A stretch of DNA of 64,000 nt, from positions 4,428,258 to 4,492,257 of the forward strand of contig CAJINV010000007.1 of assembly GCA_905178155.1 (NCBI GenBank), read 5' to 3'. The notes under the pieces are model-generated. The model had not been told where the DNA came from, did not search any database, and saw only the letters and a program-made list of their open reading frames with translations. The DNA is from Amoebophrya sp. A120 (lineage: Eukaryota; Protista; Dinoflagellata). The position numbers were made by a program, and so were the translations under genes. Below are positions 27,701-57,090 of this stretch, in pieces; position 1 is the stretch's first letter, and every line of letters starts with the position of its first letter.

Positions 27701-30700
27701 CCGGAGGCCAGCGAGCTTCCGGCCATATTCGGGGCCCCAGGAGAATTGCTCCTCTGTTGCTGCTGCGCCGCCTGAAAACTTCTGCTCGCGTGGGGCGGGA
27801 TCAAAGTGTCCAAAATCCGGTCTTGCCTGTCGTTTTCCGCGTTCGATTCTGCGAAGTTGTCTTCCTCATCCATCAAATCCGCGTTGTTCAGTACGTCTGA
27901 AGACAAAGTGAAAAAGTCCGCATCCACGTCGCGTTCGTCAACCTGCCCATTGCCGTGGTTTCGACGGTTCTGAGCCAGATTATAGCCAGAGGACCCACCA
28001 CTTCCAGTCCCGTCTTCGTTTTCATCAGAGTCGACATCTTCTGAGTCGGTGTTGTAGTCGGCACCCGCATGATGATCTCCGTCGCTGCTCTCGATCACTT
28101 CCTCAAAAGCCGCGTACTCGATGATGAGCAGCGATATCTGTCCTTCCATCCACACGTAGGTCGGCATCAGACTCGCGAACACCCAGTGGAACCCGTCCAT
28201 CGGGATTCGCAGCCCGTTCACGTTCACCGAGAGCTTCGTCAGCGTCACGCGAGACGACAGACAGTAGTGGAACAATTCCCGTTCCTTCTCGTTGTCCGGA
28301 AATAAATCCTCCGGGGTGAGTTGCGACAGCTGCTTGGAGCCGTTGGGTGCGTATCGTAAAGACACGGTCTTTTTCACCCGCCGGAGAAAGTTGTCGCATT
28401 CGTGCGCCAGATTTTTGTCATCCGGGTCCTGCTCCTGCTGGTTGCTACTACCGCTGCTCCCGACCTGCCTCGTGACCGTGCGCATCAGATAGGGCTGGTT
28501 CATCTTTCTGGACAGCAGAAACAGCGGCAGGGTCGAGAGGAATACGGGGAAGAGGAAAAACCAAGTCAGTTTGCGGAACTGCGTATATCTCCGTTGCCTC
28601 TTGATTTCCTTCTGGATCTGCCGTTCCTTCGCTAGGCTCGTCTCCGAGACGCGACGGCGACGACTACTCGTGTGGGGTGGATGCGTTTCGTGCGGATTGC
28701 CAGGGTTCGAACCCGCGCCAGGAGCCCAGACGCTACTGTCGGAATGAGAGCGGCGCTTGTGGAAACTCTGCCTCATCGCGTCTGCAGTCACTTCAGGAGA
28801 TGCCTTTCTCGAAGATGACAATACCGTGTTGACGTTGTCCGGATGCAGCTGGCGACTGTGGCGGTTGGTCAAGACACTAGCACTAGCAGTGGATCCAGTT
28901 GCGGTTGCGCCGACATCTTCGACTGCTGGCGACATAATTCCTGCAGATTTTTGGACGTGCTCCGCCTGCTGAAGATTCCTAGCTGCGTCATTTTCTGCGC
29001 GGCGGTGTGGATCATCGGGAGAACAGTCTTCGAGCCCGCCGCCCCTACTGCCGTGGTGCGGAAAAGCCTGCGGCGACGCCTTCTGCTTCTTGCTCCCAGA
29101 AATCGACCACGAGTGTCTTCGCGTCGCGCACCTCCGGCGGCGGACATTCGCTGCAAGAAGGCGGCCGCCGCCACTGCGACCTCCGAGTCCTCGTCGCGCA
29201 TCAACATGGTCTGGCGTAGTTTCAACATCTTCTTCTGACACAAGAACATACTCGTCGTGGTCGCTGCTGGCAACTTCTTCGTCGTCGGTTGCGACATCGC
29301 TGTACTCGTCGGACCAGTCGTCGTCAGAAGAGCAGGAAGTGAGAATCGACGACTCGTCGTAGAAACTCGTCGAGGTCGTGAACAACTCTTGTTCTGCTTC
29401 GAACGACTGCTGGTGGAAGGGATGTCGACTTCTACTTCTGCGTTGACGCGGAGGACCTTGTCTGCAGTGCGCGTCACCGCTCTCAGGCGTGTTGCTGGAC
29501 CGAGACATCAAAGACGACCAGGAAATCCGTGACAGCCGCGGCACAATGGTTTCGTTATTTTTTCTCATGCGATCATTCATCATTCTGTTGCGCGAAGAGG
29601 AACAAGAAGAGCTATGGCCACCTCTTTTGCCGTAGCTATTTCCATAATTCGACCGACTTCTCGTTCTCAACTTCAAACCTCGTCCCCCGCTCTTGGAGCC
29701 TCGCCTGGCCGAGCTTTTGGACCTCAACCTGCCGCTTCGCGTCCGGGGGCAGAACTTTTCGACGCAGCAGGCCGGAAGAAAGTATTTAGCGCAAACCAAT
29801 CTCCCGTCGCGTCTGCTCCTGCCACAACAGGTCCTTCTCAAACGCGCCCGGCAGGTTAATCCGGTTCGATTGCAATGCTCCCCGATCACCTTGAACAAGA
29901 GGTAAAAGACAAACGAGAAGAGCATCACGTGCAGGTAGAGAAACGCGATGAATTCGAAGGAAGAAAGTTGTGCGAAGTTCCACCCCTCGTAATACCCCGT
30001 GCGCTTCTCGAACTGGAAAACAGTGGAACTGACGGACCTCTTCTGGTTTTGGGTATTTCGGTTTTGACTCTGCTGGTTTCGCTGCACCGCCGCATTGCCG
30101 TCATTGCTTGCCGGTGCCACTGTGGATCTCAAGTGGTCCTCGCGATCGCCAGCGAGGCGCACAAAGATGTTCTCAATATTCCAGGCGTTTTCACTCACCT
30201 CCAGCACCGCCTCGGCCTCTTCCAGCTTTTGCTCGAAATCCACGAACTTCTCAGTAGCTGGATAGCTTTGTCTGTTCGGATTGCGATTGCTTCCTCGATT
30301 ACGAGCATTATTTCCACCCCTCCGTCTGTGCTGGTGCCTGTTTTGGTTCAAATTTCCATCTCCACCCCCTCCTGCGCGTCTGTGCGGTGGGTGGTTCCTG
30401 GGCAGCACGCCATCGCTTTGCTGCAAAGCGGCGAATTCCGCCTCCTCTTGGTCCTCCTCCACTTCGCTGGCATCAGAAAAGAACATGCTGTTGCGAAGAT
30501 TCGAATCATCATTTTCGGCCCGGCTTCGTGCAGATTCCATGTCGGATTCATCTCCTGGTGCTGAGTCCTCATTTTCATCCTCATGATCGGAGTTGACGTT
30601 CATATCAGTCTCGTCGTTTTCAACCTCACTATCGGAGGCTAACAGACGGAAATTATCTTGCTCCTGTTGTCCATTATTTCTCCTGTTGACCGCCACGCCA

Positions 30701-33700
30701 TCAAATCCGCTACCGAAGTGGTGCTGGTCTGCACTGTCCACCACCTCTTCCTCCACCCCGCCGCGAAACTCGTTTTGCTCCAAATCCTGCCGCAGTCTGG
30801 CGTTCTGCGACACGTCGAAGGGGTAGTATCGGTCGGTCAGATGCCGCACTTTCACCTTCGACTTCAAATGCACAAAAATCCCGGACACCCGCTTCAGCCA
30901 CGGGAAGACGGAGTTGGTGGCAGGAGCGACGTAGCCGCCGCCGCTGTTCGGGTAGTTGCCGGCTGCGTGCTGGTGGCCCGGGCCACCTCCTGCAGCTCCA
31001 GGGTTGAGGGTCTGTTGTTGTCCACCTGGATTACCAGCTGCACCTGCTCCCCCCACAACTCCATTGCCGTTCAACATCTGCGCACTATTCCCATCCTCTA
31101 CAAACTCGAGAGCCGCGTCCTGCAATTTGGTTTCCAGCTCCACGTAGCCGAAACTGGGCGTCAACTGCACATCCTTCACCCGCAACACCTCCACTTCCTG
31201 ATCCTCCGCCGAGAGAAATTGCTCGTTATCCGAATCGTCGTCCTCCGAGTTGTTCATGGAGCTGTTCGAAAAATCGCTGTTTCCTGCTCCAAACGAGCTC
31301 TTCGTCAGCCTGACGCGGTCGGTGAGCGGTTTCAATAACCCCGTGAGCAGTCGGAAGGGCTCGACCACGAACTGATTGTTCAGATTGGCATTCGCGTTTT
31401 GGTGATGATGTCCTTGACCTCCGCCGGCTGCACGGTTAGCGTTATGAATCTGCTGGTGGTGCTGCTGAAAACTGCCTACGCCGTCAAAAGTGTTGAAGTC
31501 GTTAAAATTCTGCTGATGGGAATTATTCAGCACATTGTGCCGCTGTCTCTTGTTCGCGTGCCACACGCGAAGGACTTTGCCGGTACGAGCAGGGGATGAA
31601 GATAAAGACCCCGAAGGTGGAGGAGAAGTACCTCCTTGTTGATTGCCCCGCCCATCATCTACTGCCGGCACTACAGTCGCCTGCTCGTGGTCCAGTAGTG
31701 CCATGTCCAGCGATCCCGCGAGCATCGCAGTCGGCCGGGGGATGTTCAGCAGTGCGTAGTAGGGCTGTTTCACTTCCACCGTCCCGCACGCGTCGCGTTC
31801 CAGCAGAACCACTGCGCCCGTCACAGGATCCACGCTCTCGCACTGCTTCAGGTTCGCGATGGCCCGCACCTGCTTGAAACCCGGACTGATCTTGAATCTT
31901 TCGGAGAGGGTGTAGGCGAGGATGGTTCCAAACCGGACCATCAAGGGCTGGAGCAGCAGATCCAACGTCGGGATGATCGACGAGGCCGCGTTCCCGTCCA
32001 ACAACATTTCGCGCACGAAAAGCGCCACGTGCGGCTTCACGAGCTGCTCCATTTCCGGGGAGGACGTCCCGGAGAGGGTCTGCGCCAACCGGGTCAAGCC
32101 CCCGATCATGGTGTGTGAGGGGTTGATTTTCAGGTGCTCGCAGCGGATATTCTGGATGTCCACAGCCTGGCCACCCTGCGCAATCTCCGCGGACGCGGTG
32201 GTGGATTTGGTAAACAACGGCTTCCCAATCATCGTCCACTGCCAGTTCGGCTCAATCAGCACGTTGGGGTTGAATTTGTACGGCGGCCGGTCCTCGGCCG
32301 AGAGGAATGGGTTTTGCTGGTTCAAATTGTTGTTCGCATTAATACCGCTGATGTTCATCTGTGTCGCTGAGCCACTAGAGTTTCCCTGCAACTTGTACAA
32401 AAACCGGTGCGCCACGGCGTTGGATCCCGCCTTTGGGTGTCGCGACGGGAAGACCAAGTGTCGGTCGCGCAGCGGGCGGGTGGTCGGGGTCCTCGTAGTA
32501 GGAGTTGCACTACTCTGCTCTCCTCCAAACGCACTATTCCTGTTCCCGCTGGTCCGGGTTGTCGACGACATGAGCCTCTTGGCCACCAACTTCCGGTGGA
32601 ACTCTTCCTCCACCAGCGTCCGGCTGGCGCGAAAGCCCAGCGCGAAGTGAAAGTGCGGGAGCTGGATTTTCTCCACCAGCCCCGACCGGACGCACAGGAA
32701 GCCGGGGACCTTGGTCCAGACATCGGACAGAACGAGGTTTTTGATCCCGACCCCAGCCTCCTTCAAGTCTCCCTCGACGACCAGGTCGCCCAAATCCGTC
32801 TGGGATAGGCCGAACTCAAATTTCCCCTTTGTCAAATACAGCCTTTGGAGCGCGACAACGTCCAAAACCAAGTCATAGTCGCTGAAATCGTCTTCGGGAG
32901 GGTCGCTGGCGGGCGCTGGGGATTGCGAAGGGGGCGTCGCGGGCTGTAGTTGACTTGATGTTGATGTCCCTCCCTCTGCAGGAGGTGGTTGAGAAGACGG
33001 CGCCTGCGGCTGTGGTTGCTGATGTGTAGTTGACGTTGCAAGAGGTGTATTGGTTGGGGCTATACTGGGTGGGACTGAGCTACCTGGCTGCGCGGACTGC
33101 GCTGGCGGTGCTCCGGAGGTTGCTGCAGAATTGGTCCCTGACCCTGCTGCGTTCGCTCCGCCACTTGCTCCGGCTGCGGCACCTGTCGTGCCCTCTGCCG
33201 CCGAGGATGCTGGAGTTGTTCGTCCTGTGCCCGCACTACTAGCACCAGCAGGAGCTGCTACACCTGCTACACTCCCCGCCGCGCCACCAGAAGCCGCACC
33301 TCCTCCATTGGACGATGACCTGTTCAACACCCGCGTCTGCAGCCACTGCGCTGCCGTCCGGACCGCTTCCAGAAAGGGTCGGATCCGCTGCAGCATGCTG
33401 TTGCCCGCGGCGTTCGCGGTCCCCGCGAGCAGCGTGCTCAGTTCGGAGATGATCCAACCCGGGGCGTTCTGCACGGTCACTTGCTGCGAGGCGTGGTCGA
33501 AATTTCCGAACAGGCCGGGGCGCTTTCCCCGGTGCTCCCCGACGATCGGGAACACTCGGTCCGCAGTGCGCGCCTTGTCGCAGGTTTGCTGCTCGCTCTG
33601 CCACAGGTAGTGCTCGTAGGACAAGTCGTAGTTGACGCCCAACAGCTTCATCGCGCCCTCCGAGTCGAAGCCTTCCTCGTCGGTGCGGGCAAATTCGATG

Positions 33701-35520
33701 AACCGGTTGCGCCGCCCGCAAATGCTCTGGTCGCCGAACACGGTCACGCAAAAATCCCGGTCCCCGCGGAGGAAAGCGGGGTCCGTGTTTTGCGGAGTTT
33801 GGGCGGGAGAGGCAGATGACGTAGAAGGAGCTCCCCCGCCGGCAGGTGTAGGTGTTGTCGTTCTTGTGGAGGAAGAAGTACTACTAATAGACGACCGTGC
33901 TCCTGTCGCCGATGTTGCACTAGTACCTCCCTGTTGCTGCTGTTGGAACGGGTCGTTGCCGTTCGCCCACGGGTTCTGGCCCCGGAGCAGCTGCGTGACG
34001 ATGCTGTTAACCGGGTCCCGGTAGCTGGACAGGAAGTGGCCCCCGGCGAGCAGCACCTGCGACAAGAGGCCGAACTGCGGGTCTTGCCGCGCTTCGCCGG
34101 TCGCGCGCCGGCGCAGCTCGCGCAGCGAGTCGGAGTCGTGGGGGGCGAGCATGGGGGAGTCCGCCTGTAGGGTTTCGTCGCAAATCACTTTGGGCTCCTC
34201 GTACCCCTGCAACACGCGGGAATACTCAACCGGGACGGGGCGGTTCTGTTTTTTATGAGAGTGCATAAAGTTGTTTTGCAAAAAAGTATACTTTTGGCAG
34301 AAGATGATGAAAATGCTGAAGAGGTGGTAGAAATTGATGTCGCGCTTATTCCCCGACAGCCTTCGGAAAATCAAACCAATCTCCTCTGCCAGAGGCGAGT
34401 TGTCTGACTGTCACACTCACAGGCACGTGCAGCTGTACTGACTCCCAACCTTAACATGAATGTGATTGTGAAGCAGAAGTGCACAACCACAAAAGATCAA
34501 AGAGCATGAGCATTCAGGCAAAACAAAGACAATCCTTCTTCAAACTACCCACTCACGACTTACCTTCAATTTGACCTTTCGTTCGTTCGTGACGGGATCA
34601 CGAAACACGTTCTCGACCGTAAACCCAGTCACCCAGTTATCGTGCGCCAGCGGATCCCGCACCCACACATTGTCGTTCGCCGCGAGCGCCTTCCGACTTC
34701 CCCAGTAGCACAAGGGAAGCAACGGCGGAATGGCTTCCATCACACACTTAGCGACTTTTAGAACCATGCGCGACAGCAGCCACAAACTCCCGAAGCCCAT
34801 CCGGTCAGGGAGGGAAAAGCCGGCTCTACTAGTTCCGCTTGTGCTTGTTGATGTCGCGCCAGGCGTACTGGCTGCAGGAGGGTTTTCCCCACTTCCATTG
34901 CTCCCGCCGTCTCTATGATTCCCGCCGAACACACGTGCAAAGCCCTGCAGCAGTTCCCGCATCGCGTTGCCGCTATCCCGTCGCATGCACCGTGCGAAAG
35001 TGGACTGCCACACGCCGGAAGTCGACCCTGCCACGTTGCGCGCTGCCTGGGCAACCCCTCGGCCCGCTTGCCCCGTTGCCGCTCCCATGGCGCCCGCGCG
35101 CAGCCGCGGGAGTCCAACTCGTCGCAAGAAGCCGAACAAAGAGGTCCATGATCGAGCAGGAGTTGGGGTGGGGCCATTTGAACCAACTGCTCCCTGCGCA
35201 GTGGTTGCTCCTCCTGGGGACTGCTGCTGTGGACCCGTTGCTGTTGCATCTCCGGGTTGTTGAGGTGGCTGCGCATTTGACGTCGTCGGGGACGATGATC
35301 CACCCATAGAAGCTCCACCAACGCCTCCACCTCCAGCGGGTGCTGCAGGCGAAGCTCCTGTGCTCGGCGGCGGGGTCGCCGGCGCCGGTACTGTTGCTCC
35401 ATGACTTGCGAGCGTGTGCTCCACGTAGCTGGTACTGGTGATACAAAAGAGAAGCAGCAGCAGGATCCCACGAAAGGGCAGCATCGAGTTTTTACTGGTG
35501 GTGCAACAACCGGCGCTCAT
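21709..35520 (-). CDS. Giant (~4,540 aa) predicted membrane protein of unknown function; exons 35520-34564, 34383-21709
   Basis: 326-aa and 4221-aa ORFs joined in phase 0 by a GTAAGT...AG intron (34384-34563). Signal-like GILLLLLFCIT; TM-like FIAFLYLHVMLFSFVFYLLF and WFFLFPVFLSTLPLFLL. Globular blocks alternate with low-complexity linkers. Confidence 0.8.
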
Positions 35521-36264: not shown

Positions 36265-37480
36265 TCAAGATCCATCTGCATGAATACGATTTGCAGACTT
36301 TTGTGTTGTAGTCCGTGCGGTATTTTCTTGATCTTCTGTCTCTGTCTGCCTCTTCAGGTCTATCTTTGATGGGGATCCTGCATGTAGAGCATGCGCACTG
36401 GCACAAGCGGAGTGCCTAATCATGTTCATTTGTAAGCTGCAAATCTTGGTATCACACTTGACTTGCTGCTACTTGATCCACAAGGTGTGTGATCGTGAAG
36501 ATTTTTGCGGATCCGCTTGGTCATGCGTATTCTTTGTCGAAGCACCTCAACACGAGGGGCGGAAATGTAGTCAGAGTGTACCCTGTATCCGGAGGACCAG
36601 AGGCAAGAACGGTTGCTTTTTTGATCTCAGCACTTTTCGACCACCTGCCAGCCTAAGAACCACCCTGAAGCGAAGAATCTAGACCGACGTTTGGGATTGC
36701 TCGTAGTACTTTCTTACTACTAAGCTGCTACTGGTACTGTTATCGTGTTTTTTTTTCGTCGAAACAATCATTGTACAAAGCATTTTACTATCTTCATTCA
36801 TCTTCGGCATCAAGTTGTGCAATAAATCGGTACCTCCTTCTGCTCTTTGGTGACTCTGACCACAATACGATCATAACCATCCTGCCTTGCTGAGTCACTG
36901 AAATTCAACACTGAACGCTTCTTACGAATTATCCAGGAAAAAAAACCCATCATTTTTTGCTATTTTTTCATCTAAAAAATGAACCATTTTTTTCAAAAAG
37001 TTTTCAGGTTTGTGCGGATAGGCTTCTCAAAATATCTATGTCAAAATGATCTAGCTAAAGTGGCGTCGTTAACAGGCACAGAAGGAAGATATCAAACTAG
37101 CTAGGTGCAAAGCAAAACACTCGCAGCTGATGACGGGTCGCAGATCTCGCACAAGTCCTCCTCGCAGGCGCAGATCGCCGCTGGCCCCATGTGGGGCCAG
37201 CGAAGGTCAAATCGACGAGACCAGCCTTCTCCTCGGTTCTGTACTTGGTCGCGCGGCGTATCTCGCTTGGGCCTAGCTAGCTTAAAATCATCTAGTGATA
37301 CTATGTGCCATGGACGCCACTAGCTAGTTGCGTTAGTTACATTTCTTCACGTGCATCATGCGAAAATAATTTTAGAATTTATTTTTTTTTTCATTTTTTT
37401 TCAGGGTTTTTTTGCATAAAAAAAACAGCAAAATGGATGTGGATGGGTTTTTTTTTCTGGATACGAATGTGGAGCACCAT
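36265..37480 (-). CDS. Possible small multi-exon gene spanning the 36930-37463 element
   Basis: Removing the element plus one TSD gives an open frame MVLHIR-KKRSV...EQKE ending at GAG|GTAC. Two further phase-compatible GT-AG exons can be built. No homology support. Confidence 0.25.
36930..37463. mobile_element. 534-bp foldback MITE, TAT...ATA type
   Basis: TIR TATCCAGGAAAAAAAACCCATC / GATGGG(T)nCTGGATA. Perfect TSD CGAAT (36925-36929 / 37464-37468). Further internal inverted blocks (CTAGCTAAAGTGGCGTC vs GACGCCACTAGCTAG). Confidence 0.92.
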
Positions 37481-38076
37481 ACTGGCTGCTTGTACTGCAA
37501 GGGGGTCTTTCTACTTCCAAGAGTAGGCGCAAGTCAAATTTTTACAAACCGAAATAAGCAATAAATGTGAGCAGCAGGCCACCGGCAGTGCCTGTGCTGG
37601 TCATCGATCTACCTAGGTAAAAGTCGATGCCTTCTAAGTCTAACTTCAATTTTGAATTGGTGCTTTCTGTTCTAGATATTCTACAATTACAATGAGAAAC
37701 CGGTACCAGAGAGGATGACGACGAGATGTCCTAAATTATTGGAATTTAATGTCTGGAAGTGACTTCGTGTTCTAAAAAACTGAAATTCATCCGAGCTAAA
37801 TTAATACTTAACTGCAGACACGGCAAGGGTGGCTGTGGTCCAGAGCACAAGAAGTGCATGGATTAAATAACCGCATGCAAGAAAAAAGTTACGAGCAAAA
37901 GGAAGCATGATTAATCTTAATGATGAAATTGAAAGATTGATAGACTTCGACGACGAGGCCGGGTGGATAGCCGGACCTGAAAAAAAATGAAAGACGAAAC
38001 CCTTCGAACAAGTAGACAACGAAACTTCTACGGTGATTTCTAGCCGTCTTGACTCACTGCTGGTATATATACTTTG

Positions 38077-41000
38077 TTACAAGAATGAGGTGGTTGCTGA
38101 AGCTGTCGCCACAGGAGCGGCCGTTCCTGCCTCACCACCGGCTTCTTGCGAGGTTGTGGATGTAGCAGTACTACCATCTTCGCTGGTCGTTGTTGAGTCC
38201 GAGGTTGTGGCGGTGAGGTTTGAAGACGACCCAGTAATTTCTTCCAGTCCCATCTCGATCGTTGCGTACGAGGCCAGCTGGGCGATCCTCGTTGCAAAGG
38301 GCCACGAAATGTTGTCCAGCGTGTCGTCGATTGTGTGCCCAAATTTGGCCTCCGCATCCTAATATGCATGACAAACTGTTCTCAACTATCTCGAAGAGAA
38401 AAAAATAGTTTTGATGGCAAGCCTCATTGGTTTCATTTGGGTCTTCTGGGCGATACATCACGAATCTGTATCGCATAAACAGAAAACCAAAACGAGGATC
38501 CGTCGTTTTCTGTTTGCGACCTCCGTCGGAGGTCGCAATATTTCGTGCAATCTTATGTCAGGTGAGGCTTATCCTCTAAGCAGGGCCGAGGCCGTGATGA
38601 TAGAATGAAATAAAGCTGCATGATCGACGTGCAACAAGCATCTTCGTTCTGCCTACATATGCCAGACTTGTTGTTCGAGACAGGGAGGAGATTAATTTGC
38701 GCTGCATACCAGGTTGTCGCGCTCGATGAGAAGAACCGCCGGGAAGTGGTGATTCAGCATGGAGATGTGGTCGGAACCGAAGCCGTGGTAGTTGACGGAC
38801 AGGTCCAGCTTCGAGGGGTCGTCGTGCGACACGATGCGCTTCGAAAGTTCGCCTAGAAGGTTCACCAGGTGCTGCTGGGGTTGCTTGGTGTGGTCCAGGC
38901 TGGGGTCCGGGTACTCGCCCTTCGTTTCGAAAATCAGACCGGTCGGACCACTCGGAGTCTTCTGGTAACCAACCTGGAGAGAATCGTTTTGTATGTTTAA
39001 TAATATCGGAATGTTTATTCTTCATCAACACATGTTATACTGACACGAAGAACAATTCCAAAAACGATCATGCGGAAACGCAATGCTAAACGAATTTGTT
39101 TCTCTTTTGCAGATCTCCCTTGTCGCTGACTCACAATACTACCTGGTCCATAATCAAGGCCTGGTAGACGGATTTTTTCTGCTCCTGCAATTTCTCTGCA
39201 AAAGCCGCACTACCGTACAGCCCCTCCTCCTCAGCGCTGAAGGCCACGAAGTAGATGGGTATGGAACAGGAAAGATAAATCGCAATCGAATCGTATTAAC
39301 CAATGCGCGTAAACTAAATCCATTTTCATTTTTTTTTCATTTCTCGTCCTCGTGTCTGAGGTAGGTTTACTCAACTTACTACGGAGGAAGGGAAAAATAT
39401 CACATTTCGACTGCTAAACTAACGATACTTAGCAAATCATGGGCATTCTTTCTACTCGCAAGATACAAGAGCTTAAACTTCCTAGAAGTTTCTGTCATTG
39501 CGCGGCCAGTGCCCTGTTAATACAAAAGACATGCAGCGACACACTGGGTTTGAATTTCATTGCGTGCGGTTTTTCCCGTGGCGATACTCGGTCGGTTTGG
39601 TGCCGTTTGCGCTTTCTCGAAGTACTTCGTAGCCTTTTCGGCGGCGATCAGCATTGCTGTGTGGTTTTATTTCAAAGTTGACGCGATTCTCATTTCCGGA
39701 ATAGATCACTCAGACAATGATATTGTGACACTAAGGGTCAGGAAGAGACTAATAGAATACTTTACGCTAATTTAATTTTCTGTACATGCCACTCCACTGG
39801 CATTGTCGTCGGCACCGGGGGCGATTTGTCCGAAAGGACGGCTGTCGTAATGGGCCCCGACCGCAATGATCGGCTGATTTTCGTTACCGCTCTTCGCCTT
39901 CAGCTCGGCAACGACGTTGTAGCACTTTACGCCGGAGTATGAGAGTACTTAAATCCACCTCCCCTTGTTGTTCCCTTCATTTGAACGGCTCGGCAGCATA
40001 CTGTTTCACAACATGAGTCACCAACCGCTTCTTGACACATTCACTTGCACGACCCGGCGTGTGCTAGCCTTTGCCTTGTTCATCCGAACCGACTGAAAAG
40101 TAGATGTGCTGCTAGAAATAGCGAGAGTGATGAAGAGTGGACGATTTCGATAGTTCTTTGGCTTTGCTATCTTGCATATACCTTCAACTCAAGAAGACAG
40201 CGGGGTAAAAAGGGGGCGAATTCTTGCACTCTCATACGGAGCAGTCGAACTCCTCCTCGCGCACGTCCAAATTCGGCAATTTTTCCGGGATATCGCACAA
40301 AAAGCATGCTTCTCGTGTAAACATGTATGACTTTGCAGGATCTGCATCACAAGTTAAAGTCTCGCTTCACATGACAAAGAATAAGATCTGCCATACGTGC
40401 TTTCCAAGAGAGAAAGACAGCACGGCTCAAATATGCATTTTTGCATGATACTATTCGAAGTTTACAGTGCAGAAACGCTACGTTTTTTCTATCCATACAG
40501 GTAGGCCTTGATGTATTCCCGGGCCTTCTTGTTTCCGTCGTTCTCGATGTAGCGCGATTCCTGGTTGTTGACGAATTCGGTGAGTAGGCCTTTGTACTCC
40601 GCCTCTGGCAGGGATGGTACGCTGATCAGGCTTGGCGTTACTTGTGACAAATCCTCCGTCGAGACAAACGCCTCCAGCTGCTCGACGATTTTCGAGTGTC
40701 GACGCGTGATTTTTTTGCTCTTCTCGACGGCCGCTTTCTGTTCTTGTTGTGCAGTGGACTGGCTTTTTTCCACCTGCGCCGATGCGTTCTCGTTCATCTT
40801 TTGCAGCTTCTGAGCTTGTCTTTGCTTGGTAATTTTTCCCACCTTGCTGTAGTTCAGCTTTAAAGACGATGAGGAAGCAATGGCCGTCTGCCCGTTGCTC
40901 GACGTCTTGCTGGTAGATGAAGCGGTAGCGGTGCCGACATTGACTTTGGACGCCGCGAGCTTCTTCTTTTGCAGTAACTGCAGGGTAGATGAAGTGGATG

Positions 41001-41719
41001 ACAGGCTTTCGTGTCGCCCCCCAATCTGGTCCTCATGGTGTCTCCGCAAAAATCCGGTTGGTCCTCTCCGGTGGGGATTTCCGCCAGCCAGCTTTCCTAG
41101 TTTCCGGAGTTCTTGACTAGCCGAACCAGCGATATGCAGTGCAAAAACATCTTTCATCTGGCACACGCACGTAAGTACAACTACGAGCTGCAAGAGCAAG
41201 ACGAGACGAGCAGAAATGTGCATGCCAATGTTGATGTAGCTCTCCATCTTCTTCATGTTCATGTAGTTCATGCCCCTGCTCATCCTGTGGCAGGAAGTTG
41301 TGGTCTTTTGAACAATCCCTCGAAACCGTATGTGCGTGGGTATGATGACGACAAGCAGTACATTCTTGCAATGCATAAGCCGCGCCACTCGAGGACGACG
41401 GGGACGAGGCGCCGGCGATTCCACCTGTCGCCCCTCCTGCTGCAGCAGCTCCGCCTGCTTCTCGTCGTACAAGCTCAGCAAACGCTCCTGTTGCACCACT
41501 CGCTGCTGTTGCAGCCCAGAAAGCGACGAGCGAGCGACAAGTGGATGTAGCACTGGAGGCGCACTTCCGCTGAAGTTTTCTAGTTTGATTCGCTTTAACA
41601 TTCCGCCCCTCTGCATTGTTTCCGCTGCGATTCATAGGCGACATCGTTCTGTGATATAGTCCAGCCGTTGTAGCACGAGAAGTCGTTCGCACTATAGAAC
41701 GGGACGCGGCGGGCGCCAT
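38077..41719 (-). CDS. M28-family zinc aminopeptidase, ~631 aa, 8 exons (41719-41380, 41129-40498, 40285-40237, 39932-39786, 39656-39588, 39255-39143, 38973-38710, 38358-38077)
   Basis: Reconstructed motifs NVVAELK, VGAHYDS, APGADDNASGVA, RPIYFVAFSAEEEGLYGS, LIMDQVGY, GSDHISM..FPAVLLIE, GHTIDDT. Exon lengths sum to 1896 nt with consistent phases. The catalytic exons are absent from the ORF track. Confidence 0.9.
38363..38708. mobile_element. TAT...ATA element (TATGCA family) forming a now-canonical GT-AG intron (38359-38709) of the M28 gene
   Basis: Imperfect TIR TATGCATGACAAACTGTTCTC vs TATGCAGCGCAAATTAATCTC. Flanking 5-mers on the mRNA strand CCTGG / TTAGG. Confidence 0.75.
39260..39586. 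mobile_element. Degenerate TAT...ATA element, intron in M28 gene
   Basis: Imperfect TIR TATGGAACAGGAAAGATAAATCGCAAT vs TATCGCCACGGGAAAAACCGCACGCAAT. 5-mers CCGAG/CCCAT. Removing 332 nt restores NRPIYFVAFSAEE. Confidence 0.75.
39938..40236. mobile_element. TAT...ATA element, family B (TATGAGAGT), intron in M28 gene
   Basis: TIR TATGAGAGT / ACTCTCATA. Perfect TSD CGGAG. Removing 304 nt restores EEEFDCS-GVKCYNVV. Confidence 0.88.
40291..40497. mobile_element. Degenerate TAT...ATA element, intron in M28 gene
   Basis: TAT and ATA ends with a weak TIR. 5-mers ACCTG/TCCCG (mRNA strand). Removing 212 nt restores YIKAYL-EKLPNLDV. Confidence 0.65.
41133..41377. mobile_element. TAT...ATA element (TATGCA family), first intron of M28 gene
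   Basis: TIR TATGCAGTGCAAAAA vs TATGCATTGCAAGAA. 5-mers CGGCT/TCGCT. Removing 250 nt joins ORF 41117-41719 to ORF 40489-41616 in frame (SGAA-GSASQELR). Confidence 0.8.
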
Positions 41720-44166
41720 TTTGACAGTCTTCGTCTTACTTCTCTTGCTGTAGTGTCATCGAAGAAAATACATAGAATGCCATCGACGCCCTCTTCTAGC
41801 ACAAGCACGTTTACGCAACTACCAAATCACAAAGATCCACACGAACGGAAAACCAGAAGGGCTATTTTATCCGGTTTCAAGGTCAGGTGACTTTCCCATC
41901 TGAAATTAATGTCACTTCGGATCTACTTCTAGGTCTAGCAGTGCCACCACTCCTGCTCGTCCAACCTCAATAAACTCAGTGACATCACTCTATCTCCAAA
42001 ACAGGGACGACATAGAAAACACTTCCTCTCGGTTCAACAACCCTTTTCTTCTTCATCATTATCTTGATAAAGTTCTTTGACAGGTGTAGTAAATTGCAAT
42101 TGGTGTGAGCAGAGCTAGTAGATGCTGAACTAGCATACGCACCCGTTTTCCGAACCGACAACACCAGCTCCTGCGATGATGAATTTACGTAAACTTACAA
42201 CGTCTTCACGCAAAAACTCGCGAGACTGCAACTCAATTTCACAACAGAGGAGTGAGTGTTGTGAGAAGGAGATTCCATGGCGATTCCCGAAAGCATTGAC
42301 GACGATTCTCGAAAGCAATTGCAATATGAAGCACCCTGATTTAAGTAGTAATCGACTTAGATAACTGGGCACCATGGTGGGCAGGGAGCGCGCCCAATCG
42401 TTTGCCGCAAAATTTTCCTGAAAGAAACCCCATTCCTGATTATTCTGCTTTCCACCGAAGATCGAACTCTTAGAGGCGCAAACGCAAGCGCGATCCTGTC
42501 CTTAAAAACCACTTGACGCTCTTTCAATGCTCAAGATATCCCAAATCATGCAGAGGCGAAAGAAACAGATGTGATAGTGATAGATCCCGTGCGTAATAGC
42601 GATAGACGGTGTAAACTTTGGTATTCTTCGAATCGATACGGATCGTACTTTGCAACTTCTACGAAATCTGTACAGCAGCAGCCATTGAAAAAAAACCTGC
42701 TTCTGTCCCGCAATAGCATAACTCGAGTCATCTTTCATCTATCTATAGGCTTTATAATTTTGATTAATCTTTAAATTTGAGCAACTTAGGTCCTTGTCAC
42801 CGCCAACATGTTTTTGAATCCATAAAAAAAGCTTCTGCGAGACAATTGTTCTCAGCAATCGGTTAAGTAAGTAACAATGACATATTTATAGATATACCGT
42901 TTTGAAATACCGACGTTAAGAGCGAGGGAGACGAGAGGTTGTCGACAGCTTAAAAAAAAATCAGTACTCGTGCCTGTCTTAATTTCTTTGAAAAATTCGA
43001 ACTACAAATATGCATAAAAGTCCCTTCACTCGTTTTTTGATCTTTGCAGGAGGCAATGACATGCATCTATAAGTTTTTCCGCAGCGACAGCCCCCGGCTG
43101 CTTCTGCATACGCAAGCTTTCATAAGTGTTGTACCTTGTAATGCTATGTATACTATATCGAACGTGATTGCATTGCTTGCACCCTATGAATATGGGTGAA
43201 AAGCCTTCTTAGCGCTCATGGATAAAAGTAGTACCCTTTACATTTTATGAAAAAGATGAAAGTTCTGAGAAACTTACTACAGCGTGTGACACCGCAACTC
43301 AATTGTACGTACGGTTTGTACGTCGGCCGCTCAGATAGTAATCACTTCCTCTTGTTCGTGTTCGTGCAAGGCAAACTCGTGGCTATGCAAAAAACAAAAT
43401 TAAACAGCATGTACGCGTCCTCGCTTTTCATTTTCTCCATCGACATCGATGAGCCCATGCTTCAGCTCAACGAATCATGCGGTAGAAGAAAATACCATCC
43501 ACGTATCCACACCCAGAACCAGATCCAACTCACTCACATACTATAGTATGCATGCCCAAGCGCCGCCGAGGACGTATCAATAAATCGAGATCGACTTCAG
43601 CTAAAAAAAATTGTGGCTGCAAATGCTGTTTCACTCACTGCACACTGTTGAAAAGCCAAAATGTGAGTACGTGGGTCGATAATAATGACTTTGAAACACA
43701 ATGCAGACGAACATCTACCAATGCGCTTTGCTTTTTCATAACCATCGCCGAGAATTACCCGCCAGCGTCCCGGAAAATTCGAATAGAAATAGTGTCCGCT
43801 TGGCTGGTCGTCGTGGGGCACTTATCAAGCTAGACACGCTCCTCGCGAAGGATGGTAATACACAGCTGCATCACCTGTGGTCGGAATGTGAACAATTTTC
43901 AACATCAACATCAAAAACGCAAATTGACTGACCGCGTGTCTACCCGCACGGGTGCGGCTACTAACTTTAGACCGACGCAAGCGCACGCGGATAAAAATCG
44001 GTAAGAGAATGCGAGAGGCATTGCAGAGCACTTTTCGGCTTCCACCAAACGCACGCGCGCTGAGAAGTAGCACGTGCACCAGGTCGCATACTTATAATTT
44101 TCTCAGGTAGTGCCATCGATCAAAAATTTCCGTGTGCTGGATTCGGTGAGGTAAGGCGTGTCTTCT

Positions 44167-47100
44167 TCATGATAAAAACGTGATGACCGCCGTGCCGTCC
44201 GTGATGGCCAGAATTCAAATATCCCACGCGAAGTTACCGCCGCCATCATATTAAGGCTTTGATTTTATTTCGGAGAAGAGATGCTTTCACGTTCACATTT
44301 CAAGCTTATCATGCTTACTCTGTGTAGTTCTCATGCATGGGTGTGCGCGTACTCGTACATAGACATACCTATCACGAAACAATGCTGGTGATGCCGCCGG
44401 CTTACTTCGTTTCTTTTGTAGGATAGCCCAGTCGTGTGTTGTACAAAATGAACGCGTCGTACATTTCGGACAAGAAGATCGGCTTGACACCGGTTGCGCT
44501 ACAAACGTGCGGCCGGATGCTGAATGGCGCGATGCCTCTTAATCCTTGGTACATACCAAGATGCTTGGCAACAGTTTCGCCGTTTTGTCCTTCTCCTTGC
44601 TTGATGAGTGCTTCTTTGTTTTCGATGAGCCTCTCCAGGTTCGCATTTTCTTCACTTGGAGGTGGTGGTGCAACGACGCCGCCTAGTGGTGTAGGGAAAA
44701 CGAGAATCACAGTCAATAAACTGTCTCGCATGATAGATAGCATTAAGCGGCAGGCGGCCCCCGCCGCAGTGCTCAGTTAATATCAGAAATTTACATAGTC
44801 ATAGCCCAACACGGCCACATCTGTGACGTGGACGCGACGAACGATGCCGTCTCTCGGAGCTCTCCGATCTGCCAACTGCCTGTGCCTATATTTGATGATC
44901 AGACCAGAAATTGAAATTGAAAATACTTGCGCGTACCTTTGACCTGTATTGCGTATCCCAAATTTTGTGCGGCCAGGCTGTCCACAGCCTCTTTGATCGT
45001 CTGGCGCGAAAAAGGTACCAAATCCGGGCGCTTGTTGTCCTGGTAACCGGTATCATCATTTTCTGCTTTCGGGTCCCGCAGCAGCTTGGAGCCTCGGGGC
45101 CTGAGGTCTCCGTCTGCTCGGACAACACGCTTCGCCACTTTACACTCAGCGAACTCGTTGCTTTTGGGATCGTGTGGACAGAAGAACGCAACCAAGACGA
45201 GCGAACCCGAACCGCCCCCGCCCGGAGCGCCGCTACCTTCACCAGACGCCTTCTCCTTAAGTAATTTCGCCTCCTCGTCCGCGACAACGACCTCGGCAAT
45301 TTCTTTAGGGCCGGCAGTTTTTGGCCCTTCTGAAGCAGGATACACTCGCTGGAGCTTCAGGCGTGTGTGACGTTGAGTAACTGTTCCGGGTGGACTTGAA
45401 ATCGAGCCGGACCCCTTTCCTGTTGTCGCATCCTTACTCTCTCTGTCGACAGTGACTTGGTACACAGTTATCTCTTTGTCGACAATCTGCATCTTGTCAC
45501 GGATAGCATCTCCTAGGGCTTTGTGAAGTGTCTTTTGCGGCCCTTGGCCAAGGCCAGCCTTTGCCTCCTCTTCGTTCGCAACAATATACACCCAAGAGGC
45601 GGTTTTGGGCTGCCCTAAATATCCCTGTGCGCGCGGGTCGAGTAACCCTGTATCCAACGTACAGGCAGGGAAAAAACTATGGCTCACTCCGCCTACGCCG
45701 CGTGCCTGCAGATCTGGACAGGAGTACGAAAAGGAGGCACACGGGAGGGCAACTTTCGTCGACTTTGTCTTGCCCTCCTGGGCGAACCAACCGTCAGCAC
45801 CACATTTGTCGCCCGCTCCGCTTGGTAGTGCCGGTTTTTGGGCACCAGACGGCGACACGCTGCCAGCCCGTTTCTGCAGGTCCGAGACCTTGAAGTGTTC
45901 TATGCGGGCAGCGGTGGTTTGGCTAGGAAGCCACCAGGCTTCATAGTCTTGGCCATGACTGCGCGAAGGAACTAGTGGTCGGTCTTTGATCCACTCTGCT
46001 TTGTTGATGTCGGAGTCCCGTGATGGCCCACACTCCCCGTAATCTGTTGTCGTTATCAGCTGCGGGTATTCCACGTCAGACCCCTGGGAATCTGTGCTGC
46101 CTGGCACGAGGCAATCTCCTGCGAAATTTCCGTCCTTGGAGAAAGCGTACGTGGGGCCATAGATGTGATGTGGTGCTGGGTCGCCCGAAAGGCCGAAGAA
46201 GAGAAACGAGTTGTCCTGATTCTGCACCATGCTGCCAGCTGATTGCCCGGCAAGCAAGAGTTTCTTCTCCCGCCAAAGCCGTAGAATTTTGGAAAAATAC
46301 GAAGGAGCGTCTCGCACTTCGGCCATTACGTCAAAGACATTTCCGCCACCGATGTAATACATCGTCTTTGCGTCTCCTTCCTTGGGAAATAAGCGATTGA
46401 TGAGCTCGCCTTGAGGAACAGCATCTTCGTGATCGGTATCGTGTGGAATCTTTTGTACCATGTCCGGCTCGTCCGCGTCAATTTTCCAGCTCAGGTTGAT
46501 AAAATTTTCGCCGTCGCTGTGGGGGGAAGGCACCCTAACCCGTAGCTTGTGCCGGACCAAATCAACGTAGAACACTGAATCGTGCGCGATCTTTTTGTAT
46601 TCGGGTACCTGCCGCAGCGAGTCGGTAAATTGCCGCAACGAATTGGCGACGTGTGCTCGGAAGGACGGCGTCATCAGGCACTCGACAAATTCGTATGGTG
46701 GCTGGAACTTTTTCGCTTCTTGTTCTTGTTCTTTCTCTTCTTCTGCTGCTGCTTGCGTCTTTGTTTCCAGCTCCAGTGTGCTCTCTGTCGTGCCCATCTC
46801 ATCTTCATCTACTTCTCCGCGGCATGCTTCGGGATTCCGCAGCATGCTAAGCTTGGCGTCCGCGTTCATGATGAAAGTGAAAGGCGCTTTTCCGTTGGTG
46901 CCACCGCCCCCGCCTTTGCTAACAAACTCCCGGAACAGGTTCACGAATGCCAGCTGCAGGCCGCCATTGTCGATGAGGGTGGACAAGAAAAACCCGTATC
47001 CATAGGACGCAGATCCAGCTTGGGACTGCTGTTCCCGCGGTTGGCCGGCGCTGGACGACATCGAGGCCTCGAGAGCAAGAATGCAGGTCACATACGCGCG

Positions 47101-50100
47101 CTGCGCCACGTGACTGGAATCGGGATACGCGAGGGCAGCGCGTTTCCCGGCAGGTAGGCAACCTGCAACCAACGCCCCTTGTTTTTGTTCGGGTCCAGGT
47201 CCTTGGCCGTTGTTCGCTGTGCCTGCACTACCCTGGACGCCCCCATCTGGTGAAACTACATTCGCATCTTGGATGAGTCGCCACACCCGGTCCTCGACGT
47301 CTTGCTTTTTGCCGCCTGTCGGAATGCATACAACGGACAAAGCGAACAGGGAGGAAGAGCCCAGCGCCTCCGACGACGATTTGGGAGTCTGGGCGGGCTT
47401 CTCTGGGCACATGAACTCCATTGCCTCGAACACGCTGCCATCGCCGCCTAGATACGTGTACTCTCTTTCTTCTTGTGTCTTCGCAAAACCTTGCGCATAC
47501 ATCTTGCACGTCGCCTGGTGGGTGATTTCGGCTTGTTTTCCAGTCCCGCTATGGGGCTGCTGCGTGGCCGCCTCATTCGGGAACGCACCCTTTTGACTTG
47601 CTGTGAGCACCGGCGCGCAATAATCTTCAGGGCCTGGGCTTACGCATTGCCAGCTTTCCTTTTTCCCTTCGGTAGTGGTGCCGCAAACCTTGCACCCGGC
47701 GACCCGGCACGCTTTTTTCGCAATTTTCAGCACCATCTCGTTGTCGTCACTGCTGCCGCCCGGCTGCTGCGTGTACGCTTTGCGGAACCTATCGTAAGTC
47801 TGAGCGAACTTATCAGCGTCACAAGCGTCGTCGGGCCCCGTGACGGAGCGCGAGTGCGCTTTGAAGAGTTCAGCGCCTCCCTCTTCTTTTCCTTTGTTCG
47901 AGAAACCCCATGAAGTCGAGCTCATCAATTTCGTAGATTTTTCGGCCGGCCCTTCTCCTCGCACAAGGAGGAACTCGGCGTCCCCGAGGATTGCCCGAGA
48001 CAGACCATCAAACGGATCCCGGTCGGTCGTGCCACGGACTTCGCCCCCGGGCGTTGTGACGACAGCCATTCCATCGGTAATCGCAATCATTTCGGTTTCG
48101 GTATTTTGCACCAAAAACGTTCCGTACATTAGGGACTCGAAAACCGGCTTCGGTCCCGTGGCGCTGCAGACATGCGGGCGAATGCTGATACCTGGGCCGA
48201 GCCCCCGCAGGCCTTGATACATTCCAAGGGCGCCAGCTCCTACTGAAGCTCCGCTCAGAGCAACCGTGACGCCACCTGGATAGAGATGTTTGTCAGCGAG
48301 CTTTTTCTATTTTTCAGCGCATTTTTTTGCACTGATTCGGGCGCCCACCCTGATCTTTGGCTGCGATTCATGGGCGCCGCTGCACACTCGCATAGCGGGA
48401 CATGGCGTCCACAGCTCATTCCGTACCTCTGCGCAGACGGCGGGCAGGGCGGCGCCAGAGCTTTGCTGTGCTAGCGGGCCGGCCTGCTGTTCGGGCCGGC
48501 GCAAGCCAAAAACACGCCCCCGACCAATACTGAAGGCAACCGGGCACACGGTTAACAACCGCGGTCATGCTGCTGGCCGGCAGGCACGCACCCACGTGGA
48601 ACCCACAGGCGGCAGGGGTGGGCCGCCCCTTCTACTCCGCAAAGAAGGGTCCCGAAGCGAAAGGAGCCGGGTTGGATTCGCCGTCGCAAGGGCAGCGCGG
48701 ATACATGTACCGTGCGCGCGCCCGCTACACCGGGTCGCGGGCGGCTTGATGATCCCCGGTGGCCCGGGGGAGTGTTAGTTTGCCGACCGGGTGTGTGAGC
48801 CGGCAACCGGGCACATGCGCACGGTACGCGGCGCGTTTCATCGGGGCGGCCAAGGCAAGCAAAGAAACACGAGGCGGAAGGCCAACGCAGTGCCTCCCTG
48901 GGGCTTCTATGCTGGCTTTTCGCCGGGCACCTAGGCCGGGCGGGCCCTTCTTGGGTGGCCGGCTGGGCACCTCTCCGAGCCGGCTAGCTAGCTTCGGGGC
49001 CTTTTGGTCGCGCCCCCGACGCGAGTAGGAGATTCGCCCCCCGGCCTTTTTCAATGGCCCCGCCCGAGGACAGGAAAAATCGCAAAGCGCCTCACTGACA
49101 TTCGTTCGTATCTGCCGCGTGCATGAGACGAGGCGATCTGCGCCCATCCGACGCGGCCGGGCGACCGAGCGACCCATCCCCCGAAGGCGTCACTCGGGCC
49201 TTGCGAAACGTCCGCTCGGGGTAACAAAGAAAAAGAACCGCACCGCCCTTCGGCCAACCCATCCGAAGGACGACCGGGCGCCCAGATAGAGCACATGGCC
49301 AAGGCCGCTCGGACCCCTGCCTCTCCACCCCACCATAATTAAATTGGGAGGGCAGCGGCAAAACCAACGGAAACCAAGGCCCGCCAAGGCATATTTTGCG
49401 CAGCTGCCTAACCACCAAGCAAGACACCCGCCGCGGAGCACTGCAAAACACGCAGGGCACGAGAAAACCGCGAACCCGGCGAAGGGGCTGGCGACAAGAC
49501 CCAAGGGCCCGCCCGAAGCCGGCCCGCGCCTTTTTTCCAATTTTGCTGGGTTTTCTGAGTGACACACAAAGAAAAGCCAACGAGGGAGGCTACTTCCACT
49601 CGACAGAGGGGTTCTCGCGCAAGATTCTCGGGCGCTTCACTTCGAATCGTTGGCGCACATCCATGCTTGGATGGCTGGGCCAGGCGCCACTCGGCTTCGT
49701 CCGTTGGGTTCCTTGCCGTCTCCCCGGGGGCGCGGCAAAAATAAAAAATGCACTCACGGTGGCTTGGCTGTCTGCCTGAAACTACCTAGTAAAAAACGAG
49801 CGCGAGCGGCCGCTAGATCTTCATCGTTTTTGCCAAAAAAGCGAATGCCACTCCCTCCCCTTGACCTGATCCCCAAATTAAATGAAAGCGACCAGCCGGC
49901 CCTGGCGGTGGTGGCAGCTGTTTGTTATTTAAGCCCAGGGACATGCGCAAAAGTGCCAGCCACACCCTGTGTGGCCGGACTGTTTTTTCCCGCGCCGCCG
50001 CCTTTCTCCCGGCGCCAACCGCCTTTGGGCGCCCACAGACACCAGATACATTAGACCCCAGCGTGCTGGCTGGGCACCTCAACCAATAGTAGCCGCCCCA

Positions 50101-56100: not shown

Positions 56101-56656
56101 TCTTCTGGTGAGTGGACAGGAAGAGGAGAGACACCACAAAAGACACATCGCAAAAAACAACCTTTTCGTCACTCCATTTGTCAGTTGTCAATGCCAGCAG
56201 CCCCAGCAAACTGCAATGAGATGTCGCACTCAGAGTCAGAGGGTGCAAGAGAAGATCAGCATATTACACGTTTGCAGTAGCGGTACTGCAGCCACTACTT
56301 CACATGCGTCGGACATGTAGAGAATTTAAGCACGTGTTTGCCACGTCCAGCCAAAAATTTCTCTTGAAAGACATCGACATCGTCGGTCTATTCGACGTAA
56401 ATTGCATGACAAAACAAAGAAGAAGAACCGCTCCGACGGAGACACTCCTATTTGCATCTGATCCAAACCCAGACGTTATGTTTGTATTCGATAGGCTCGC
56501 TCACGGAGCGGTAGCCGGTCGCGAGATCCGCAACCAGTAGCAAGGAGAGCAATGGTGCTATGATTGATAAGAAGGGCTTCAAAAACCGACTCCGGAACGT
56601 CGACAACCTGCTATGGAAGTCTCCTCAACAGATAATTACAGATTGAGCTGTTACAT
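44167..56656 (-). CDS. Probably secreted ~2,480-aa protein with two tandem, heavily inserted peptidase S51 (PepE/cyanophycinase-like) domains; exons ~56656-56655, 56607-56496, 55991-54596, 53447-51150, 48275-44937, 44682-44427, 44215-44167
   Basis: Each unit carries YYIGGGNVF, LLAGQSAGSM (nucleophile Ser), GLRG...SIRPH (His) and AITDG(M/T)AV, preceded by a Cys-rich module. Exons sum to 7452 nt with consistent phases. Hydrophobic N-terminus FLSIIAPLLSLLLVA. The start (AT|G split by a 47-nt intron) is tentative. Confidence 0.8.
44220..44425. mobile_element. Degenerate TAT...ATA element, last intron of S51 gene
   Basis: IR TATCCCAC-GCGAAGTTACCGCCGCCATCA vs TATCCTAC...CGAAGTAAGCCGGCGGCATCA. Removing 211 nt gives NTRLG-ILAITDGTAVI, homologous to EMIAITDGMAVV in unit 1. 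TSD largely decayed. Confidence 0.7.
48276..51149 (-). other. 2,874-nt GT-AG intron of the S51 gene, filled with a GC-rich degenerate insert
   Basis: G|GTATTT donor and TCCAG|GT acceptor join VEVAG-GVTV in phase 1. Same position and phase as the 254-nt intron 44683-44936 in unit 2. Confidence 0.75.
53451..54593. mobile_element. 1,143-bp TAT...ATA element with GC-rich interior, intron in S51 gene
   Basis: Imperfect TIR TATCGCGGCGGCAACCACTTTTGCGAAAA vs TATGGCAACGGAAAACACTTTTTCCGAAAA. 5-mers GACGC/GACAA. Removing 1148 nt restores KKNVV-TSSLFALS, collinear with unit 2, which has no intron here. Confidence 0.82.
55995..56493. mobile_element. Family A TAT...ATA element (older, 499 bp), intron near the 5' end of S51 gene
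   Basis: IR TCGAATACAAACATGTCTGGGT vs ACCCAGACGTTATGTTTGTATTCGATA, matching the family A TIR (left terminal TA decayed to GT). 5-mers AGCTG/GGCTC. Removing 504 nt gives YRSVSE-LVRGRS in frame. Confidence 0.82.
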
Positions 56657-57090
56657 CCTCTGCTCGACGTGCGGGTTTGCTGCTGAACAAGAAGGAGAAA
56701 TCACGATGCAAGAGAGGAAGTGTAGCGCTTCTCGCAGTACTTCAAGTTGTAATATTAGCATCAAGGGAAGGAAGTAGAACGATTAAAGACATGAAAATGA
56801 ATTTGGCGCTGATCGTTCCGATAGCAGTCGAACAAGGATTATTCTCGCCAACATGCATTGATGCATCTTGATCTTCATGGTGGTATCATCGGACCTTGCT
56901 TTGTGATTGAACCTGTTTGTGGGCATGACAAATAGCAGAACAAAGATGTAACACCGTCTGAGAATTTTCCAGCTGAGGAGGCCATACAATCGCAACAGGG
57001 CCAAGTCTCGCTTTCTCCACGCCGGTAGTTCGCGTTTCTTCATGTTTTTCATACCATTTTCGTATTTATTTTTCGCCGTGTCCATGCTTT

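Follow-up and report, generated by a model that had tools for sequence, protein, structure and literature searches.

Whether an intron born from a transposon can pass into ordinary GT-AG splicing, and by which changes, is the question raised by one intron in the 64-kb window analyzed here, the whole stretch of DNA to which all coordinates refer. The locus comprises the following features.

Source: Amoebophrya sp. A120, a marine parasite of algae, 64-kb window.
38077-41719, minus strand: host gene, an M28-family peptidase of 631 aa (PF04389, precomputed) with seven coding-region introns.
38359-38709, minus strand: spliced intron of 351 nt, phase 0, GT..AG, equal to 1 nt + element + 4 nt; supported by a contig joint and by translation.

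Five of the coding-region introns of the M28 gene are of the element type and two are plain GT-AG introns. The exon 5' of intron 38359-38709 (38710-38973, minus strand) matches, at 100% identity, a 631-aa Amoebophrya sp. A120 protein, P0001, whose relatives are found in A25 (73%) and in the g19104.t1 protein (68%), which we take from its gene-name style to belong to strain AT5; PF04389, peptidase M28, is present in all three, and a Pfam scan with three single exons of the gene gave nothing above the cut-off. On the minus strand, the borders of the intron read CAACCTG/GTATGCAGCG...TGTCATGCATATTAG/GATGCGG. A contig of run X1 joins 38357 to 38709, skipping 351 nt with 2 letters of slide, and GT..AG is one of the three registers that this joint permits. 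The contig has a depth of 180 at the joint, shows no other letters on either flanking piece, and splices out six more coding-region introns of the gene. Joining the exons at the RNA joints yields P0001 letter for letter, an agreement to be read with the caveat that the P0001 annotation may share the same data. The joint is backed by this single contig of a single run, and run X7 spans the stretch and lacks this joint. The runs compared over 36700-56699 were X1, X7, X8, and X9, of which X8 and X9 had no coverage at the intron and covered just 2 of 30 bins, in the repeat near 50688-50804; X1 to X4 are presumed to be RNA and contain spliced joints, while X8 and X9 are labeled as RNA.

Within the intron, the element and its borders are arranged as follows.

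38363-38708, no strand assigned: introner element, 346 nt, TAT...ATA termini.
38688-38708, minus strand: terminal inverted repeat, 5' arm, with the TAT + 7 nt + AAA motif of PMC7789003.
38363-38383, minus strand: 3' arm of the terminal inverted repeat, 15/21 complementary to the 5' arm.
38709-38713, minus strand: CCTGG, the upstream copy of the target site; its first four bases are exonic (end of Asn537, Leu538) and its fifth is the donor G.
38358-38362, minus strand: TTAGG, the downstream copy of the target site; its first four bases are intronic, with the acceptor AG at their end, and its fifth opens the exon.
38514-38538, no strand assigned: internal near-perfect hairpin within the element.

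An earlier, sequence-only reading had described canonical ends combined with a TAT...ATA repeat placed as in other elements, a donor GT composed of the last target-site G and the first element T, and an acceptor AG lying in the downstream 5-mer (CCTGG versus TTAGG). The sequence agrees on all these points, as does the register table on the placement of the repeat. The repeat is imperfect, with 15/21 pairs, an exact tip of 6 nt, and no perfect 8-mer. In the comparison with shuffled introns, a check that had been set beforehand, terminal similarity exceeded that of the shuffles, with 15/21 being reached by 3 of 200,000 interior shuffles when GT..AG was kept fixed, by 50 of 200,000 when GTAT..ATA-NN-AG was kept fixed, and by 3 of 5,000 when each could take its best score over 48 end offsets. 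Four plain RNA-supported GT-AG introns gave 2, 4, 5, and 5 of 21 (7 to 9 at the best offset), and the ends of different elements, when paired with each other, averaged 9.0/21, with 3 of 210 pairs reaching at least 15. One of these three pairs, at 16/21, combines the 5' arm of 38359 with the 3' arm of element 41133, a sign that the ends are related. Furthermore, both arms match the end motif published for A120, TAT + 7 nt + AAA, and a leave-one-out end matrix applied to 995 TAT sites placed the 5' arm in the top 39 and the 3' arm in the top 111. No other copy of the element interior was found within the window, and X7 depth over the element did not rise at 88% likeness. The spacing of the target-site copies fits a 5-nt duplication and 2 of 5 bases match, so that it is the geometry that points to a target-site duplication here. 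Insertion into a pre-existing intron was discarded, since no intron is left once the element is deleted together with a single 5-mer. Given the inverted repeat, the end motif, and an intron that equals exactly the element plus one 5-mer, intron 38359-38709 is a real and probably introner-derived GT-AG intron that joins a reported class.

What such an intron owes to its target site becomes visible when it is set beside its neighbors. RNA joints were surveyed over 36700-64000 only, with elements 12919 and 18422 known from DNA alone, and 19 joints were usable after dropping two within the 50644 repeat, two more without listed coordinates, 52329/54895, 54926/51400 (rearranged-looking), and 53448/54601 (a duplicate of 53445/54594). 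Thirteen of the 19 cannot be GT-AG; 12 of these show TAT at +2 and ATA at -7 in a register that the joint permits, and the thirteenth (55991) shows TAT only. Among the six GT-AG-compatible joints, 38359 and 56608 share the element geometry. A register of 1 nt + TAT...ATA + 4 nt is permitted in 15/15 element-type joints, the next best in 9/15, and at three joints (43380, 43819, and 60725) it is the sole possibility. Consequently, the donor is target base 5 followed by T (N+T) and the acceptor is formed by target bases 3-4 of the downstream copy. Under this register the donors are GT in seven, TT in five, and CT in three of the 15 introns, and the acceptors are CC in three and TC, AG, CA, GC, TG, GT, and AC in one or two each. 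The published non-canonical classes of A120 introns nearly all have N-T donors, the leading ones without exception (Table S4, PMC7789003), in agreement with the prediction of this register.

The target-site copies also differ in their state of preservation. Perfect 5-nt duplications are present at the young elements 12919, 18422, 36930, and 39938, while in older elements 0 to 4 of 5 bases match and the downstream copy has decayed in most elements; in the 14 element-type introns other than 38359, the match is at least 3 of 5 in nine and at most 2 in five. The relation between inverted-repeat and duplication match is weak (rho 0.51, P=0.036, n=17; 0.36, P=0.18, for the 15 with RNA). AG is present in the exonic target-site copy of 0/17 elements.

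Three neighboring introns bear most directly on the way in which canonical ends may be acquired.

56608-56987, minus strand: second element-type GT..AG intron, GATT/G TAT...ATA GCAG/G, with its joint in X1 and X2.
39256-39587, minus strand: element-type intron GT..CA, donor G versus exonic T, with an RNA joint.
55991-56494, minus strand: intron of the 55995 element, CT..GC in the common register and CC..AG when shifted by one, 3' tip ATA changed to AAC.

A scan of the window for GTAT..ATA-NN-AG ranked 38359 and 56608 at the top with a score of 23 each, a result that is weak alone, with a third pair at 22 and plus-strand pairs at 18; the end-matrix scan of the window gave no additional convincing element. 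The ungapped inverted repeat of 56608 is modest, at 11/21, a value reached by 11,721 of 200,000 shuffles with the ends fixed. The 55995 element had been put forward as a possible intermediate on account of an AG in its target-site copies. It is indeed spliced (joint 55990/56495 in X1 and X4, with four registers fitting), and its 5-mers, GAGCC and CAGCT, are as described; the AG would be the acceptor only if the register shifted by one base, and its use in that way is possible. Its ATA tip is broken, as in none of the other 14 elements.

Other observations were made on the elements of the window. Those at 12919-13183, 18422-18679, and 55995-56493 have a common end sequence and form one family of differing ages, with repeat matches of 21, 17, and 15 of 21, respectively. 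The element-bearing intron at 36926-37464 (minus strand), which has a perfect 5-nt duplication, is spliced from the 3' untranslated part of the M28 transcript, whose stop codon lies at 38077-38079; the short side of its joint is just 23 nt. At 40035-40701, X7 depth is up about tenfold, and the element at 39938 or 40291 is therefore likely to belong to a multi-copy family.

The two copies of the target site allow some of the changes to be polarized. At 38359, the exon reads AAC CTG/GAT, and the intronic copy, placed in frame, would introduce a stop (DN-stop-DAE); residue 538 is Leu in A120, A25, and AT5. Considering this in-frame stop and the Leu538 common to the three Amoebophrya proteins, the T>A change at -2 that made the AG is most likely a mutation of the intronic copy that postdates insertion. 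The sequence-only reading had attributed the acceptor to substitutions in that copy, which is probably correct for T>A at -2, one of three differences between CCTGG and TTAGG; the other two, both C/T, are synonymous in the exon and give no direction. Of the 11 more distant homologues, 10 carry something other than Leu in the Leu538 column (D, M, E). Directly after the intron, A120 has Asp and A25 and AT5 have Tyr or His, so that the G shared by both copies at target base 5 is a derived state of the A120 line, which most simply arose before insertion. A similar argument applies at 39256, in the same gene, where the exonic residue is Ile in A120 and A25 and Met in AT5: since the intronic G would encode Ser where Ile or Met is kept, the donor G was likely gained in the intronic copy.

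The Asp539 of P0001 (38356-38358, minus strand) lies near the M28 domain's C-terminal GHT motif, at a position held by an aromatic residue or His in 12 of 13 homologues. Among 108 candidate orthologous stretches, 14 were confirmed, at 30 to 49% identity; 13 of them are uninterrupted, transcript-like or intronless, and the other (L014) is a fragment ending in a stop, so that none is informative on the intron position, and the search turned up no alveolate orthologue as a genomic locus. For exon 44429-44680, none of 50 candidates proved to be a relative.

The predicted structure of the intron adds a second layer to the interpretation of these changes. Its fold has a z of -6.2, with 0 of 100 shuffles as stable, and its predicted end pairs have a probability of about 1.0, the stem continuing through CCUGG/UUAGG across both splice sites. 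Tip pairing (at least 3 of the first six pairs at P>0.7) was predicted in 13 of 14 folded element-type introns, 40287 being the one without it, and in none of three plain introns; this suggests that the terminal stem serves as the splice signal of element-type introns. CCTGG is a near-palindrome completed by T>A, and the change therefore lengthens the stem: the predicted energy of 38359 is -122.4 kcal/mol with A at -2 versus -118.2 with U. Templated repair of an imperfect palindrome is a possible route to a change of this kind. Since T>A both completes the near-palindrome and strengthens the predicted fold, stem extension, by selection or by templated repair, would be an alternative cause of it. 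Over 15 elements, the trend toward stem extension is weak in Watson-Crick pairs (15 versus 12.3, P=0.17), and with G-U pairs included it gives 24 versus 19.0 (P=0.036, post hoc). At 43380-43741 (minus strand), the intronic and exonic target copies match at 0/5 positions and pair at 4/5, with a lengthened terminal stem; 43819-44175 resembles it, with one match and four pairs between its copies.

The signals of ordinary splicing were also considered. A YTRAY motif is absent from the 3'-terminal 60 nt of 38359 and of 56608, the two GT-AG elements, while three of four plain introns have one, in one case far upstream at -55; at the 3' end, 38359 has 7 of 12 pyrimidines and the plain introns 5 to 9 of 12, both comparisons being based on a small sample. 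AG acceptors number 2/15, against a neutral mean of 0.89 obtained by randomizing the mismatched intronic bases (P=0.21), or 1/14 without the ascertained case 38359 (P=0.47). The claim of the sequence-only reading, that an introner had here been turned into an ordinary GT-AG intron, is thus supported in its first half, with the introner origin and an AG made after insertion, and goes beyond the data in its second, given the 1+4 register common to this intron and the non-canonical elements, the predicted intact stem, the lack of YTRAY, and the lack of an AG excess. Full conversion is unproven because the AG count is within the neutral range, the predicted stem is intact over both splice sites, and T>A extends that stem.

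The explanation that we favor, with some confidence, is that 38359 is an old A120 introner whose AG was made by one T>A change in the intronic target-site copy, and that it is still removed by a predicted hairpin-guided rule. An element would insert into a CCTGG-like exon site, duplicating 5 bp, and the splicing machinery, guided by the pairing of the ends, would cut one nucleotide ahead of TAT and four past ATA. One target-site copy would thereby end up split into the intron and be freed from coding constraint; target base 5 and the T that follows it would then form the donor, and bases 3-4 of the downstream copy would form the acceptor. At 38359, base 5 would have been G, and base 3 would have become A by drift or by selection for a longer stem. 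The intron is consequently a candidate for dual compatibility, one that may be readable by either splicing route, and a candidate stepping stone rather than a completed conversion.

True conversion under selection is the alternative that survives best, and we regard it as possible, if doubtful. It holds that gains of GT and AG were favored by efficient ordinary recognition, and that 38359 is now a standard intron whose hairpin is a relic. The window contains two GT-AG elements, each with a non-AG exonic copy, yet the AG count lies in the neutral range. The polarized T>G donor gain at 39256 would fit as well, as would the frequency of G, the commonest base at +1 (7/15), except that G is as common at exonic base 5 (6/15), and thus the +1 G would be mostly inherited from the target. 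Against this reading stand the intact TAT/ATA tips and stem, with both splice sites predicted to be paired, and the absence of YTRAY from the last 60 nt. At the scale of the genome, the shares given in PMC7789003 translate into about 21% GT-AG among repeat-bearing A120 introns, versus about 2 to 3% if the ends were random within a fixed register, a difference suggesting that something favors canonical ends in these introns; however, this share is open to the canonical preference of aligners and to insertion at AG/G sites.

We consider it unlikely that the intron was born canonical, by insertion at an N-N-A-G-G site that provided GT-AG from the start, with the exonic copy altered later. Introners commonly take their splice sites from target-site duplications (PMC9860276), the Asp after the intron, instead of the Tyr or His of A25 and AT5, indicates that the site changed in the A120 line, and the Leu538 site is not invariant, given the D, M, or E of 10/11 distant homologues. 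But this course requires an ancestral NAG codon (Gln, Lys, or Glu; TAG itself is a stop) and then a return to Leu, the residue of all three Amoebophrya proteins. Finally, an ancient ordinary intron with introner-like ends by chance would agree with an interior lacking homologues in the window, with flat X7 depth at 88% likeness, and with a 3' arm just in the top 111 of 995 TAT sites, and is nonetheless very improbable in view of the shuffles (3/200,000 and 50/200,000), the 2 to 5 of 21 of plain introns, the exact 1+4 geometry, the fold z of -6.2, and a 5' arm in the top 39 of 995 with 16/21 likeness to the 41133 3' arm.

The rest of the window also deserves description. A 2,874-nt GT-AG intron at 48276-51149 (minus strand) begins with GTAT, lacks an ATA end, and has a CTGAC branch-like motif; it holds a GC-rich multi-copy insertion, with X7 depth of up to 865 at 50040-50706 versus about 7 elsewhere, and it could be an element that has decayed completely or else an ordinary intron in which a repeat is nested. 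About 115 nt of this repeat (50688-50804) are matched at 85 to 95% by hundreds of X8 and X9 reads, nothing else of the 20 kb being covered, and Rfam gave no matches at gathering scores in the 64 kb, including 50688-50804. A GC-rich block (63 to 70%) at 14400-16000 is similar in composition to the insertion at 48300-50000 and is probably another repeat. At 21712-34410 (minus strand), a stop-free frame of 4,233 codons makes up an apparently intron-free 12.7 kb in an intron-rich genome.

It is important to consider what this locus contributes. Canonical A120 introns with such repeats (15%) are already known, as is the proposal of type conversion in euglenids, and the single locus 38359 adds little beyond the published 15%; the new detail lies in the fixed 1+4 register and the polarized changes. 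Under this register, A120 splice dinucleotides that look random would sort into N-T donors and free acceptors. Furthermore, the paired target-site copies constitute a built-in ancestral state, by which selection toward GT-AG is testable on public data. A broader and frankly speculative picture, more doubtful than not, is that a structural ruler removes tens of thousands of transposon introns in A120, and that target-site bases are then selected stepwise to GT and AG and hence to ordinary splicing. If this were true, the whole route would be measurable in one genome through the exonic copies, and its stages would include the gain of a donor at 39256 and of an acceptor at 38359 and at 56608.

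Among known systems, the closest is the A120 introner set itself, described with TAT + 7 nt + AAA ends, direct repeats of 3 to 5 nt over the borders, and a hairpin (Farhat et al. 2021, PMC7789003); 38359 has the same ends and a predicted hairpin, and the spacing of its target-site copies would fit such a direct repeat. In that work the inverted repeat is of 8 to 20 nt and joins both intron ends, singleton elements are classed as well, and the same repeat organization is found in 15% of canonical introns; 35% of A120 introns are canonical and 65% non-canonical, with repeats in 15% and 30%, respectively, canonical sites occupy 24.8% of A120 strain-specific positions, and U1 snRNA was not found in Amoebophrya. 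The legend of its Fig. 3 gives splice sites as variable relative to the hairpin, whereas one register fits 15/15 joints here, and the available part of its text describes no route from non-canonical to canonical introns, while here single changes are polarized by codons. Neither a fixed register nor a polarized conversion in Amoebophrya was found in the accessible portions of the literature, including PMC11282704, PMC9860276, PMC12130899, and PMC12005148; figures S19-S23 of PMC7789003, which depict the positions of repeats, may bear on the point.

In euglenids, an unrelated lineage, nonconventional introns have an end-pairing stem at a fixed offset from the border and variable border bases (Milanowski et al. 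2016, PMC4770533). Their pairing is of +4..+6 with -8..-6 (CAG/CTG), whereas in A120 it is of +2..+4 with -7..-5 (TAT/ATA). Intron 9 of euglenid hsp90 in ACOI 323 has GC-AG ends, and its removal by both routes, with a possible type conversion, was proposed (PMC4770533); the euglenid change was seen across strains, while that of A120 is deduced from the two target-site copies. Collemare et al. (2013, PMC3609843) proposed that introner-like elements of fungi decay into regular spliceosomal introns, and the decay of mobile introns into ordinary-looking ones is an idea common to them and to 38359. These fungal elements have canonical sites, a branch point, and a pyrimidine tract from the start, so that, unlike 38359, they need no change of splice signal. 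In introners with terminal inverted repeats and target-site duplications, the splice sites derive wholly or partly from the duplication (Gozashti et al. 2022, PMC9860276). In those introners the site exists from the moment of insertion, whereas at 38359 the acceptor was likely made later, in an intron that could already be spliced.
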